From Eledone cirrhosa (taxonomy: Eukaryota), in the NCBI GenBank assembly GCA_964016885.1, contig OZ024742.1:82956001-83020000 (forward strand): 64,000 nt of DNA. Reading direction: 5' to 3'. A program made the translations under genes and the position numbers. Position 1 is the stretch's first letter, and every line of letters begins with the position of its first letter. Below, piece after piece: positions 10,383-25,106 of the stretch. The notes under the pieces were generated by a model. That model saw nothing but the letters and a program-made list of their open reading frames with translations, did not search any database and was not told where the DNA came from.

Positions 10383-11134
10383 TAAGGAGCACACTAACAC
10401 CAGGGCCTCGTCTTTCCGGAAACACATAGCCAAATGCGGAAACAAGGACGGAAGGCCCATTGCCACAATTCTCGCGACAGAAAGAAACGTCGGCACATTA
10501 CGTATCAAGGAAGCACTTTGGATCAAACGCCTAGGGCCACAATTAAACAACCGATCCGAGAGAAGCGAAATAAGGTGCTTGGTTTAATTTAACAAACGAG
10601 ACACACACAGTAACATTCACCAAACAGGCAGAGAATACTATGGACTGACAGCTAGCGCCACCCCACTCCCACAATTGAAAGAACTACTTCGGCCGCTGAC
10701 CTCTGCTTGACCGACCCCATTTTACGCGCACGCGCATCTGCTGAATACCTCAGATATTCAAAACCACGAACAGCGGAGGACACGCTTCGCACCTTTCCGA
10801 CACACAACCTTTACCCCACGCCCCGAAAAAAAACCCCAGTTGATGGATGTGAATCCGAAATATATAGGGACAATTAAATCTCTCCCAAAGTAACTCTATC
10901 CTGTTGTTATTTTTATTTTTATTTTTATCCTTTACGGTCTTTCCTTCATTCCTCTACACGCTCCAGTCTTATACATGCCACGCATCTCAACGTACACCCA
11001 CTTACATGTCTCTCTCCACCAGTGGATCTTATTACCCGGAGATTTACCCATCTGCATTTTCGAGGCTTCTAAACGACTTAAAGTAATTTACCTTATTATT
11101 CCACAATGCTTCAAGCAAACTTCAATACTCACTT
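10383..11134 (+). mobile_element. Penelope-like element 3' end, 5'-truncated second copy
   Basis: Colinear and highly similar to 47-958; (TA)n on both sides. Confidence 0.85.
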
Positions 11135-11152
11135 ATATATATATATATATAT

Positions 11153-12202
<1,050 letters not shown>

Positions 12203-12507
12203 CTATTCCATTTCTTATGCCCGAAACGTCGTCCCCCACTTACCCCCCACTCTCCTGAGCGTGAAATTAATAAACATTTATTGTACTGCCTCTCTGTTTT
12301 GTCCCTGTTCAAATTTTTCCATTATATATATATATATATACAAATGAATATATGATAGGGATAAACACTAATACAAGTATATAAGTGTTTGTATTGCAAA
12401 TGACCAAGTTAGCTAGATTAAAAAATACTAATTAAATTAATACAGTTTGCCTGTCTCGATTTAAAATAATAAATCAATAAAAACAAACCTATATTGGCAA
12501 TAGCCGT

Positions 12508-12597
12508 GATACCCGGACAAATTTAAATTTCAAATCTTAAATTTGTTTCGCAACAATTAAGGGAAAATTCCCATTCCTGTGCTCTTCTGCAGGTATC
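12508..12597 (-). ncRNA. Type I hammerhead ribozyme, CAGAAGA core variant (504-bp family)
   Basis: Reverse complement: GATACCTG-CAGAAGA-GCA...TGC-GAAA-CAAATTTAA...TTAAATTTG-TC-CGGGTATC. Confidence 0.75.
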
Positions 12598-12831
12598 CAG
12601 AAATTGGTATGTTTCACTTCCAAATACTTAGGAAGACTGAGAGAAATGTGTTGTTGAACGCAAATGTGACCCAGCGTCTAGCTCGTCCTATACTCGTGCC
12701 GCTAGAAATAGCAGCCGGTTTTATGGGACTAAAATATTTAGCTCAACACATGGAGCCAAGAATATGTGCGTTCAACAACACATTTCTCTCAGTCTTCCTA
12801 AGTATTTTGAAGTGAAACATACCAATTTCTG

Positions 12832-12921
12832 GATACCTGCAGAAGAGCAGAGGAATGGCAATTTTCAATTAATTGTTGCGAAACAAATTTAAGATTTGAA
12901 ATTTATATTTGTCCGGGTATC
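12832..12921 (+). ncRNA. Type I hammerhead ribozyme, CAGAAGA core variant (504-bp family)
   Basis: 8-bp stem I GATACCTG/CGGGTATC, extended stem II, long stem III; GUC^ after 12913. Confidence 0.75.
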
Positions 12922-13335
12922 ACGGCTATTGCCAATATAGGTTTGTTTTTATTGATTTATTATTTTAAATCGAGACAGGCAAACTGTATTAATTTAATTA
13001 GTATTTTTCAATCTAGCTAACTTGGTCATTTGCAAGACAAACACTTATATAATTGTATTAGTGTTTATCCCTATGATATATTCATTTGTATTACACGGCT
13101 CAGAAATATCCCTTTCTTTGAGCTATTTAATTGTAAAAGACCATTTGAGTGTATAACTCTATATATAATATTCTCGGCTCCATGTGTTGAGCTAAATTTT
13201 TTAGTCCCATAAAACTGGCTGCTATTTCTAGCGACACGAGTATAAGACGGGCTAGACGCTGGGTCACATTTGCGTTCAACAACAGATTTCTCTCAGTCTT
13301 CCTAAGTATTTTGAACTGAAACATACCAATTTCTG

Positions 13336-13425
13336 GATACCTGCAGAAGATCACAGGAATGGGATTTTTGAATTAATTGTTGCGAAACAAATTTAAGATT
13401 TGAAATTTAAATTTGTCCGGGTATC
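13336..13425 (+). ncRNA. Type I hammerhead ribozyme, CAGAAGA core variant (504-bp family)
   Basis: Same fold 504 bp downstream; the first base of stem II is T instead of G. Confidence 0.65.
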
Positions 13426-13663
13426 ACGGCTATTGCCAATATAGGTTTGTTTTTATTGATCTATTATTTTAAATCGAGACAGGCAAACTGTATTAATGTA
13501 AATAGTATTTTTCAATCTAGCTAACTTGGTCATTTGCAATACAAACACTTATATACTTGTATTAGTGTTTATCCCTATCATATATTCATTTGTAATTTAC
13601 AGCTCAGAAATATCCCTTTCTTTGAGCTATTTAATTGTAAAAGACTGTTTCAGTTTATAACTC

Positions 13664-13723
<60 letters not shown>

Positions 13724-13769
13724 TTGTGTGTGTGTGTATAGTATATATATATATATGTATATATGTACG

Positions 13770-13867
<98 letters not shown>

Positions 13868-13893
13868 TGGATATATATATATATATATGTATG

Positions 13894-13932
<39 letters not shown>

Positions 13933-14003
13933 TGTTCTGCTTTGGGAAGGTCATGTTGCCAATAAGAAACACACAAGAATCTTGCTAAACAAATTCAGAA
14001 ACG

Positions 14004-22428: not shown

Positions 22429-22473
<45 letters not shown>

Positions 22474-22690
22474 GTTAAAGATGTACATCCATATATGTAT
22501 ACTGAAATACTAGTATGTATATGAATACACACACGTATACATATGTAGATGTACCAAGTTTTTTTCACTGGTCACTTTACTGTGAGTGGCCAGCTATTCT
22601 GTATGTAAACACACCGACAAACCGGTTTTTAGAGTCATACGGGTTTTTGAGGAAACACCTTTCCTCTATTCTCCAAAAAGCCAGACAAGG

Positions 22691-22735
22691 AATATTGAAC
22701 TAGTTTCGTTGTTGTTACAACTCATCAGCAATATT
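22691..22735 (-). ncRNA. Minimal type I hammerhead ribozyme (468-bp family, inverted arm)
   Basis: Exact reverse complement of the plus-strand HHR. Confidence 0.9.
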
Positions 22736-22841
22736 TACCTATCTTCCGGCCTCTCTAGAGAATCGTAAAAGCACATATCGTTATATGCTTTTTCTATGAA
22801 AATTAGTAGTACGATTCTCTAGAGAGGCCGGAAGATAGGTA

Positions 22842-22886
22842 AATATTGCTGATGAGTTGTAACAACAACGAAACTAGTTCAATATT
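22842..22886 (+). ncRNA. Minimal type I hammerhead ribozyme (468-bp family, unit 1)
   Basis: AATATTG-CTGATGA-GTTG taacaa CAAC-GAAA-CTAG-TT-CAATATT. Canonical core, 7-bp stem I, palindromic ACTAGT stem III; GUU^ after 22879. Confidence 0.92.
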
Positions 22887-23309
22887 CCTTGTCTGGCTTT
22901 CTGGAGAATAGAGGAAAGGTGTTTCTTCAAAAACCAGTATGACTCTAAAAACCGGTTTGTCTGTGTGTTTACATACAGAATAGCTGGCCACTCACAGTAA
23001 AGTGACCAGTGGAAAAAACTTGGTACATCTACATATGTATACGTGTGTGTATTCATATACATACTAGTATTTCAGTATACATATATGGATGTACATCTTT
23101 AACTTAATTGTTTAAGCGTCAGTCATACAAAAGTGAGTTACAAACGAAACGAAATTTAATTTCGTTTCGTTATTTGTTTTTATCGTCTCCGTTGAACCGG
23201 TACTTACTCACACTCTATGCAAGTTAGTCTGCCCACTACTAATTTTCATAGAAAAAGCATATAACGATATGTGCTTTTACGATTCTCTAGAGAGGCCGGA
23301 AGATAGGTA

Positions 23310-23354
23310 AATATTGCTGATGAGTTGTAACAACAACGAAACTAGTTCAATATT
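23310..23354 (+). ncRNA. Minimal type I hammerhead ribozyme (468-bp family, unit 2)
   Basis: Identical to 22842-22886. Confidence 0.92.
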
Positions 23355-23777
23355 CCTTGTCTGGCTTTCTGAAGAATAGAGGAAAGGTGTTTCCTCAAAA
23401 ACCAGTATGACTCTAAAAACCGGTTTGTCTGTGTGTTTACATACAGAATAGCTGGCCACTCACAGGAAAATGACCAGTGAAAAAAACTTGGTACATCTAC
23501 ATATGTATACGTGTGTGTATTCATATACATACTAGTATTTCAGTATACATATATGGATGTACATCTTTAACCTAATTGTTTAAGCGGCAGTCATACAAAA
23601 GTGAGTTACAAACGAAACGAAATTTAATTTCGTTTCGTTATTTGTTTTTATCGTCTCCGTTGAACCGGTACTTACTCACACTCTATGCAAGTTAGTCTGC
23701 CCACTACTGATTTTCATAGAAAAAGCATATAACGATATGTGCTTTTACGATTCTCTAGAGAGGCCGGAAGATAGGTA

Positions 23778-23822
23778 AATATTGCTGATGAGTTGTAACA
23801 ACAACGAAACTAGTTCAATATT
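23778..23822 (+). ncRNA. Minimal type I hammerhead ribozyme (468-bp family, unit 3)
   Basis: Identical to 22842-22886. Confidence 0.92.
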
Positions 23823-24245
23823 CCTTGTCTGGCTTTCTGAAGAATAGAGGAAAGGTGTTTCCTCAAAAACCAGTATGACTCTAAAAACCGGTTTGTCTGT
23901 GTGTTTACATACATAATAGCTGGCCACTCACAGTAAAGTGACCAGTGAAAAAAACTTGGTACATCTACATATGTATACGTGTGTGTATTCATATACATAC
24001 TAGTATTTCAGTATACATATATGGATGTACATCTTTAACTTAATTGTTTAAGCGTCAGTCATACAAAAGTGAGTTACAAACGAAACGAAATTTAATTTCG
24101 TTTCGTTATTTGTTTTTATCGTCTCCGTTGAACCGGTACTTACTCACACTCTATGCAAGTTAGTCTGCCCACTACTAATTTTCATAGAAAAAGCATATAA
24201 CGATATGTGCTTTTACGATTCTCTAGAGAGGCCGGAAGATAGGTA

Positions 24246-24290
24246 AATATTGCTGATGAGTTGTAACAACAACGAAACTAGTTCAATATT
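24246..24290 (+). ncRNA. Minimal type I hammerhead ribozyme (468-bp family, unit 4)
   Basis: Identical to 22842-22886. Confidence 0.92.
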
Positions 24291-24713
24291 CCTTGTCTGG
24301 CTTTCTGGAGAATAGAGGAAAGGTGTTTCCTCAAAAACCAGTATGACTCTAAAAACCGGTTTGTCTGTGTGTTTACATACAGAATAGCTGGCCACTCACA
24401 GTAAAGTGACCAGTGAAAAAAACTTGGTACATCTACATATGTATACGTGTGTGTATTCATATACATACTAGTATTTCAGTATACATATATGGATGTACAT
24501 CTTTAACTTAATTGTTTAAGCGGCAGTCATACAAAAGTCAGTTACAAACGAAACGAAATTTAATTTCGTTTCGTTATTTGTTTTTATCGTCTCCGTTGAA
24601 CCGGTACTTACTCACACTCTATGCAAGTTAGTCTGCCCACTACTAATTTTCATAGAAAAAGCATATAACGATATGTGCTTTTACGATTCTCTAGAGAGGC
24701 CGGAAGATAGGTA

Positions 24714-24758
24714 AATATTGCTGATGAGTTGTAACAACAACGAAACTAGTTCAATATT
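24714..24758 (+). ncRNA. Minimal type I hammerhead ribozyme (468-bp family, unit 5)
   Basis: Identical to 22842-22886. Confidence 0.92.
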
Positions 24759-25052
24759 CCTTGTCTGGCTTTCTGGAGAATAGAGGAAAGGTGTTTCCTC
24801 AAAAACCAGTATGACTCTAAAAACCGGTTTGTCTGTGTGTTTACATACAGAATAGCTGGCCACTCACAGTAAAGGGACCAGTGAAAAAAACTTGGTACAT
24901 CTACATATGTATACGTGTGTGTATTCATATACATACTAGTATTTCAGTATACATATATGGATGTACATCTTTAACTTAATTGTTTAAGCGTCAGTCATAC
25001 AAAAGTCAGTTACAAACGAAACGAAATTTAATTTCGTTTCGTTATTTGTTTT

Positions 25053-25106
<54 letters not shown>

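Follow-up and report, generated by a model that had tools for sequence, protein, structure and literature searches.

A predicted hammerhead ribozyme with a majority U4A core in a non-coding Penelope-like family of Eledone cirrhosa

The 64,000-nt window analyzed here (Eledone cirrhosa, contig OZ024742.1, positions 82,956,001 to 83,020,000) carries, at 12339..13668, a single insertion of a non-coding 504-nt repeat with Penelope-like anatomy. On the plus strand, 1.8 head-to-tail 504-nt units (12765..13668) stop at the second of two fixed 3′ ends, with a tail, against a (TA)n tract. On the minus strand, an inverted, 5′-truncated arm of 427 nt (12339..12765) stops at the first 3′ end, without the tail, also against (TA)n; self-BLAST showed it to be 95.8% identical to 13168-13594. 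The (TA)n target tract spans 13664..13932 on the right, and a shorter one lies on the left at about 12322-12339. The locus had been described as a 504-bp array: the self-BLAST comparison confirmed the unit length, but the arrangement is not a simple array, since the inverted arm is joined head to head to the direct units.

The two fixed 3′ ends correspond to unit positions 178 and 258 and delimit the 80-nt tail (13092..13171, plus strand). Just 3′ of the first insertion end lies a GCTC..GAGC hairpin (13098..13123, plus strand; repeated at 13602-13627), and a second such hairpin (13177..13192, plus strand) lies just 3′ of the second. We infer that the hairpin at 13098..13123 may be the signal that starts reverse transcription. 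Across all six frames of the circular unit there is no long ORF, the longest ATG-initiated frame being 65 aa, and we therefore regard the 504-nt unit as a passenger.

Three copies of a type I hammerhead fold lie within the insertion. One is on the minus strand at 12508..12597 (core CAGAAGA, A4 at 12588, predicted cut after C at 12516), and two are on the plus strand, at 12832..12921 (core 12840-12846, A4 at 12841, predicted cut after C17 at 12913) and at 13336..13425 (A4 at 13345, C17 at 13417). As the original prediction held, all three (3/3) read GATACCTG-CAGAAGA-33 nt-GAAA-stem III-TC-CGGGTATC at the predicted places. Each combines an 8-bp stem I, the letters C3 A4 G5 A6 A7 G8 A9, a 33-nt stem II region, GAAA, a long stem III and a GUC site, so that three helices surround the core with stem I open, as in type I hammerheads. 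The copies differ from one another at 8/90 columns, and a descriptor scan found the helix demands of this hammerhead in 0/20,000 mononucleotide shuffles of the unit.

The copies are unequal in their folding. Only the minus copy has the hammerhead as its lowest-energy fold (z −3.14; 0/200 shuffles as good), and the plus copies prefer other folds (z −1.66 and −1.99); in a 160-nt context, the probability of the hammerhead fold was 0.65 for the minus copy and 0.003 for each plus copy. In the copy at 13336, T replaces G10.1 (13351) and breaks the closing pair of stem II, and in the copy at 12832-12921 stem II is weakened by private mutations. The expectation that the ribozyme folds as a monomer holds insofar as stem III is long enough within one molecule; it is weaker than implied: in four further copies of subfamilies A and B, an upstream hairpin competes (fold probability 0.004-0.05). 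The GGGAA/TTCCC tip of stem II noted earlier is present in the minus copy and private to it, not a family trait. Constrained folds, examined for a contact between loops I and II, revealed no single distal stem I common to the copies. Rfam returned no hammerhead match, either at the gathering score over the whole window or at E<=10 over 11000-14000; searches requiring CTGA and Rfam are thus both blind to the window copies, as had been anticipated for the former.

The window holds two other hammerheads. A canonical minimal hammerhead (CUGAAGA, 4-nt stem III loop) lies at about 11605-11655 on the plus strand, at the 3′ end of another Penelope-like family that has a GIY-YIG domain, is very abundant (59,326 first-look candidates) and is represented by fragments at about 11,246-11,815. 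A 468-bp array of 4.8 units (22810-25055) has a canonical minimal hammerhead, CUGAUGA, closed by a CTAG loop. The array also has an inverted arm, at about 22,470-22,810, and lacks GCTC..GAGC hairpins. Elsewhere in the genome, two small further families have U3-A8 cores and a stable stem III (L188:397; L268:1834 and L360:6877, both minus strand), and small minimal-hammerhead clusters with CCGA (U4C) or CUGU cores represent candidate family states (L327:210 and L300:38, plus strand; L346:9271, minus strand).

To place the variant core in its genomic context, we searched 3.0 Gb of genome. A pattern with the same flanks gave 405 matches with A4 versus 3 with U4; it missed a sister subfamily, B, which is about 77% alike. 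A wider pattern gave 759 matches, and the first 100 listed of these comprised 92 with A4, 6 with C4 and 2 with U4. In 130 aligned copies of A and B, a set that includes loci fetched for having U4, position 4 was A in 119, U in 10 and C in 1, and position 6 was A in 116 and C in 14; at these two positions the core departs from CUGANGA. The remaining invariant core letters (GAAA, A15.1-U16.1, the NUH site and C3-G8) were kept in 122-129 of the 130. CAGAAGA is accordingly the genome-wide consensus, and the proposal that A4 is a family trait rather than decay is borne out by the 405 versus 3 matches and by the aligned copies. The stronger wording, a fixed U4A, survives only as a majority state, the core being looser than supposed: the C6 copies represent A6C added on U4A in the youngest subfamily, a small U4C subfamily reads CCGAAGA in 5/5 fetched copies and has a duplicated stem III segment (loci L302-L306, L051, L052), and a U4 subset exists. 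On these counts, position 4 looks to be under relaxed constraint and not under selection for A.

Subfamilies B, INT, A1, Awin and A2 form a series in which the spread of copies around the majority sequence is 5.2, 5.3, 3.5, 2.7 and 2.6%, respectively. Along this path 0.24 substitutions per site have accumulated, with A4 throughout. The subfamily majorities from B to A2 differ by up to 19-20%, and the copy spread by only about 2.6 points; this disparity suggests fast change of a master lineage through many rounds of RNA copying.

A more distant sister family, C, is 70-76% alike in local matches. Its core is fixed as UUGAUAA, in which U4 accompanies the already known U3-A8 swap, and its stems II and III are much longer; its copies are mostly 91-97% alike (L064:2020-2900, minus strand; L130-L159). 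An approximately unbiased (AU) test rejected C plus the U4 rows of B as a single clade (p 0.0105, 44 rows). The U4 rows of B may therefore be reversions, although U4 may equally be ancestral there. An alternative register, with CUGCAGA as an A6C core, was rejected because it requires insertions of 3 nt to either side and does not hold in B or C.

Covariation within the helices was assessed in 36 A/B copies, excluding family C and one INT copy and counting stem III only to two pairs, beyond which it aligned badly. Of 455 cells, 95.2% were paired and 15 showed two-sided change, and 2/8 stem I pairs changed on both sides. None of 500 shuffles (0/500) reached this pairing count, although related sequences can beat such a shuffle without selection; slid controls gave 2-43%. 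On the A4 path from B to A2, 7/7 changes in core-proximal pairs keep pairing. Further compensating swaps were found in stem III and against family C, which exchanges C3-G8 for U3-A8 plus two stem I pairs. This pattern indicates that the stems are kept by compensating changes. Conservation of the core on the A4 path alone was not significant (1 change seen versus 2.5 expected, P 0.28), nor was conservation over 17 positions (P 0.10).

Insertion ends place the family within a known class. Among 163 segments, exact 3′ ends fell at unit position 258 in 53 and at 178 in 47; TA repeats adjoin 123/138 segments with a fixed end, and 30/42 inverted head-to-head pairs join one end of each class. The 5′ ends are scattered (the first bin of their histogram, an alignment artefact, was excluded), and runs extend to at most 1,657 nt. 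Penelope-like elements are described as marked by (TA)n targets, partial tandem copies, a truncated copy in inverted orientation and a tail confined to one end (PMC8557442); all are present in the 504 family, as is 5′ truncation. Two internal starts of reverse transcription are reported to account for this anatomy (PMC11167929). The family also resembles non-LTR retrozymes in its short non-coding units, arranged in tandem and each carrying a type I hammerhead, here with a variant core. Judged from these sequence features, the 504 family is a non-autonomous Penelope-like passenger with a hammerhead-variant fold, a predicted ribozyme.

Adjacency did not yield an autonomous partner: neighboring Penelope-like ORFs proved to be separate insertions, with TA tracts between them or fused at the truncation point. 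The abundant L069-type element was likewise rejected as a partner, its 3′ end being unrelated and its hammerhead canonical and minimal. A large inverted duplication (L064-L066; G000:C3:329340001-329370000) carries three tandem 504 units and nested Penelope-like ORFs in each arm.

A second family, D, found outside the window, carries a CAGAAGA hammerhead at the 3′ end of an ORF-bearing element unrelated to the 504 family (L298:521-600; L067:900-1250, G000:C1:18180900-18185400), with a U.U closure of stem II and a CUU site. Its pattern gave 19,464 matches, all of the first 100 listed having A4; a looser pattern with another base at position 4 gave 312 matches of mixed G, T and C, as expected from drift. 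The best 40 copies are 99-100% alike, marking a very young family, and the two U4A families together number about 20,000 copies. The remaining core letters are canonical in the majorities of both. A near-full copy (L298) contains a 645-aa frame with RWR at 41, DKT at 119, YRDD at 350 and CNCRNRVDC (CxCx5C) at 568. An RWK-like motif, DKT and a CxCx5C linker are listed as features of the Hydra clade (PMC8557442), and D has these together with a C-terminal GIY-YIG domain and (TA)n targets. Pfam returned no match for the D protein, and its Atlas neighbors were eukaryotic RT/GIY-YIG clusters at 0.95-0.96. By motifs and neighbor clusters, D is assigned to the Hydra clade of Penelope-like elements.

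BLAST revealed no sequence likeness between the ribozymes of D and the 504 family, and the best match between the two families was 37 nt at 81% (E 0.024), with no long shared sequence. What the two have in common is a GCTC..GAGC hairpin within a few bases 3′ of each end; the spacing between the hairpins, 79 nt in A and 87 nt in D, agrees with the tail lengths. The paired hairpins are found in A, C and D, and B has variant forms of them. Because these hairpin pairs beside both 3′ ends are common to the 504 family and D, a D-type enzyme is the likely mobilizer of the 504 family, a proposal resting on short hairpin motifs. We estimate the chance that random decay would produce the same U4A twice, of about 33 core changes, at near 0.03.

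Insertion starts bear on whether the RNAs are cut. In D, the first end is 29 nt downstream of the predicted cut site, and 30/31 segments, taken from loci that had not been fetched for D, cross that site. Eight of the 31 5′ ends fall at −50..−36, the first bases of stem I, and 1 in the next 100 nt. An extra G precedes the AGTTTC start in 6/11 truncated D loci (P 0.007), one of them possibly templated by the inverted arm; 8 rows continuing upstream had been excluded and the remaining rows merged by locus. An extra 5′ G is a known trace of a copied cap, and the pattern suggests a capped transcription start at the first base of D stem I. Since segments cross the site and begin at stem I, often after an extra G, a capped, uncut RNA would be a main template in D. 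In A, 46/119 segments run at least 310 nt upstream of the cut site; the 119 segments show neither a sharp 5′ pile-up nor an extra G, and a capped start site was rejected for A. The probability that D folds as a hammerhead in a 120-nt context is 2e-5. Contigs of three runs from one sample contained copy variants only.

These observations can be brought together in a model, somewhat favored among those considered here, in which the U4A hammerhead is slowed: fold and catalytic letters are kept, and the cut would be delayed so that the RNA can serve as template, with rare cutting and rejoining possibly making circles. The enzyme would bind the GCTC..GAGC hairpins and nick (TA)n, and copying would begin a few bases 5′ of each hairpin, giving two arms whose ends lie 80 nt apart. 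The predicted cut sits in the enzyme's path, 178 nt upstream of the first start in the 504 family and 29 nt upstream in D. A fast one-molecule hammerhead would therefore destroy the template, the RNA being cut before copying, or in D would cost it the cap. Families with almost no stem III would need dimers to cut, and the 504 family and D, with a stable stem III, would be braked by a detuned core. Circles formed by occasional cutting and rejoining may account for seamless insertions of up to 3.3 units.

Published biochemistry predicts a slow ribozyme. U4 is reported to contact the A6-N7 phosphate, A6C to cleave at less than 0.1 per minute, and U4C, though slow in vitro, to sustain a viroid (PMC3088659); Mn2+ partly rescues A6C (PMC7151607). 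A full double-mutant scan found low activity for every CUGA change other than the C3G/G8C swap (PMC9901934); the low activity this predicts for U4A counts against the model. Minimal Penelope hammerheads without stem III are described as needing dimers (PMC4209133), and the hammerhead families sampled here mostly have almost no stem III. Hammerhead clusters of at least 3 copies were collected from 1.9 Mb, of which 0.8 Mb was sampled at even spacing and the remainder came from loci with their flanks; one of 21 clusters, an antisense artefact, was excluded. Among the 20 others, variant cores occurred in 5/7 families with a stem III of at least 3 bp versus 3/13 without, a weak association (P 0.06; 0.13 with A/B and C merged). 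We tentatively extend the model, with less confidence than we place in the slowed cut itself: U4A may be a working natural core reached twice, Penelope-borne hammerheads may be braked either by loss of stem III or by a detuned core (U4A, U3-A8, A6C, U4C), tens of thousands of them may be invisible to CUGA descriptors and Rfam, and the repeated GCTC..GAGC hairpin may set both tail starts.

A rather less probable reading, though one with substantial evidence behind it, is that the fold is a relic that no longer cuts, its structure kept because the Penelope-like protein or the promoter requires it, with U4A, A6C and U4C as steps of decay passed on through master copies. The low activity of CUGA mutants (PMC9901934), the stacking of A6C on U4A in the youngest subfamily, the uncut templates at insertion ends and the non-significant core conservation all agree with it, as does the block 3′ of the ribozyme, which is as well conserved as the ribozyme itself; in the in vitro system of PMC11167929, moreover, the hammerhead of a Penelope-like element was dispensable, and ribozyme mutants left insertion undiminished. 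Decay does not readily explain, however, why two families share the same change while keeping G8, G12, A13, A14, A15.1-U16.1 and an NUH site, and the U3-A8 tertiary swap of family C would be purposeless unless an active fold matters. At the opposite extreme, U4A could be fully compensated, by distal contacts between stem I and loop II or by the element's own protein, so that an efficient and timely cut releases 504-nt monomers that circularize as in animal retrozymes. Such circles would fit the seamless insertions of up to 3.3 units (5/163 segments span 2 units or more) and the fold of the circular monomer (z −3.2 versus 40 shuffles), and the Poseidon hammerhead is reported to be protein-assisted (PMC11167929). 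Rare variants are common to tandem copies of one locus in 9/20 pairs, versus 3% of 1,879 control pairs. A circular template would account for this excess, as would local duplication or conversion. Three A loci start exactly at the cut site, among 18 pattern matches (one further match duplicates a counted locus); about 1 is expected by chance (P 0.10, rough). As D copies with the extra 5′ G run across the cut site, we consider full compensation improbable.

Most improbable of all is that A4 was fixed for splicing, with C3-A4-G5 serving as a CAG 3′ splice site through which the 5′ half of the ribozyme is removed from the message. Both families do have pyrimidines directly before the CAG of the core, position 6, with which the exon would open, is variable although CAG is mostly retained, and an intron is described as ending at helix I in the Penelope of Drosophila virilis (PMC4209133). 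The 504 unit, however, has no GT(A/G)AG donor, no copy among the loci examined has a deletion ending at the core CAG, and the start inferred for D precedes the core by just 5 nt, too little for an intron to fit there. The slowed hammerhead thus remains our preferred reading.

U4 is counted among the invariant letters of the hammerhead and is hard-coded in the published search descriptors compared here. That U4A dominates a very young retrotransposon of ~19,500 copies and its likely passenger implies either that the consensus is too strict or that the fold can be kept without the cut, and either answer bears on the role of the hammerhead for Penelope-like elements. The natural series U4, A4, C4, A4+C6 and U3-A8 within one scaffold is directly assayable. 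Literature on hammerhead ribozymes and octopus contained nothing on the 504-family or D elements, and U4A as the majority core of animal retroelements was not found in the literature consulted, which took in work on Penelope hammerhead variants in part.

Among known systems, animal non-LTR retrozymes are described as consisting, like the 504 family, of AT-rich, non-coding units in tandem, every one with a type I hammerhead, and as non-autonomous and tied to Penelope-like elements (PMC7229834; bioRxiv 10.64898/2026.07.22.740005). Their reported units of about 170-400 nt have a CUGA core, whereas the 504 family combines a 504-nt unit with CAGA, a long stem III, an inverted arm and two fixed ends; retrozymes accumulate as circular RNA, whereas the 504 family is known here from DNA alone. 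Hydra-clade elements, as described in PMC8557442, have the same (TA)n targets, an inverted truncated 5′ copy, a tail at one end and a type I hammerhead near the 3′ end, with a tail of 30-40 nt versus 80-86 here; the 504 family, in addition, has no ORF. Family D has the protein motifs of that clade and the U.U closure of stem II common in its File S2, where the Hydra and Chlamys hammerheads are built as in D and frequently have U at the cut site. All of these read ctga, having been found with a CUGA-type descriptor (PMC8557442). Poseidon of Anolis likewise has two internal reverse transcription starts that define the tail, with uncut RNA as template; the core of its hammerhead is canonical and a stable stem III is lacking, whereas here a repeated GCTC..GAGC hairpin lies beside each end (PMC11167929).

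The reported natural variants U4C (a viroid), A6C (phage Bcep176) and U3-A8 each change one core letter in an otherwise canonical fold (PMC3088659; PMC7151607). All three occur among relatives of the 504 family, and U4A together with A6C in one core is a feature of the 504 family itself. U4A is not among the natural variants named in the available text of these sources (PMC3088659; PMC7151607), whereas here it is the majority state in two families, in thousands of copies. The class of element and the anatomy of its insertions are known, as are rare core variants; what appears to be new is U4A as the majority state in animal retroelement families.
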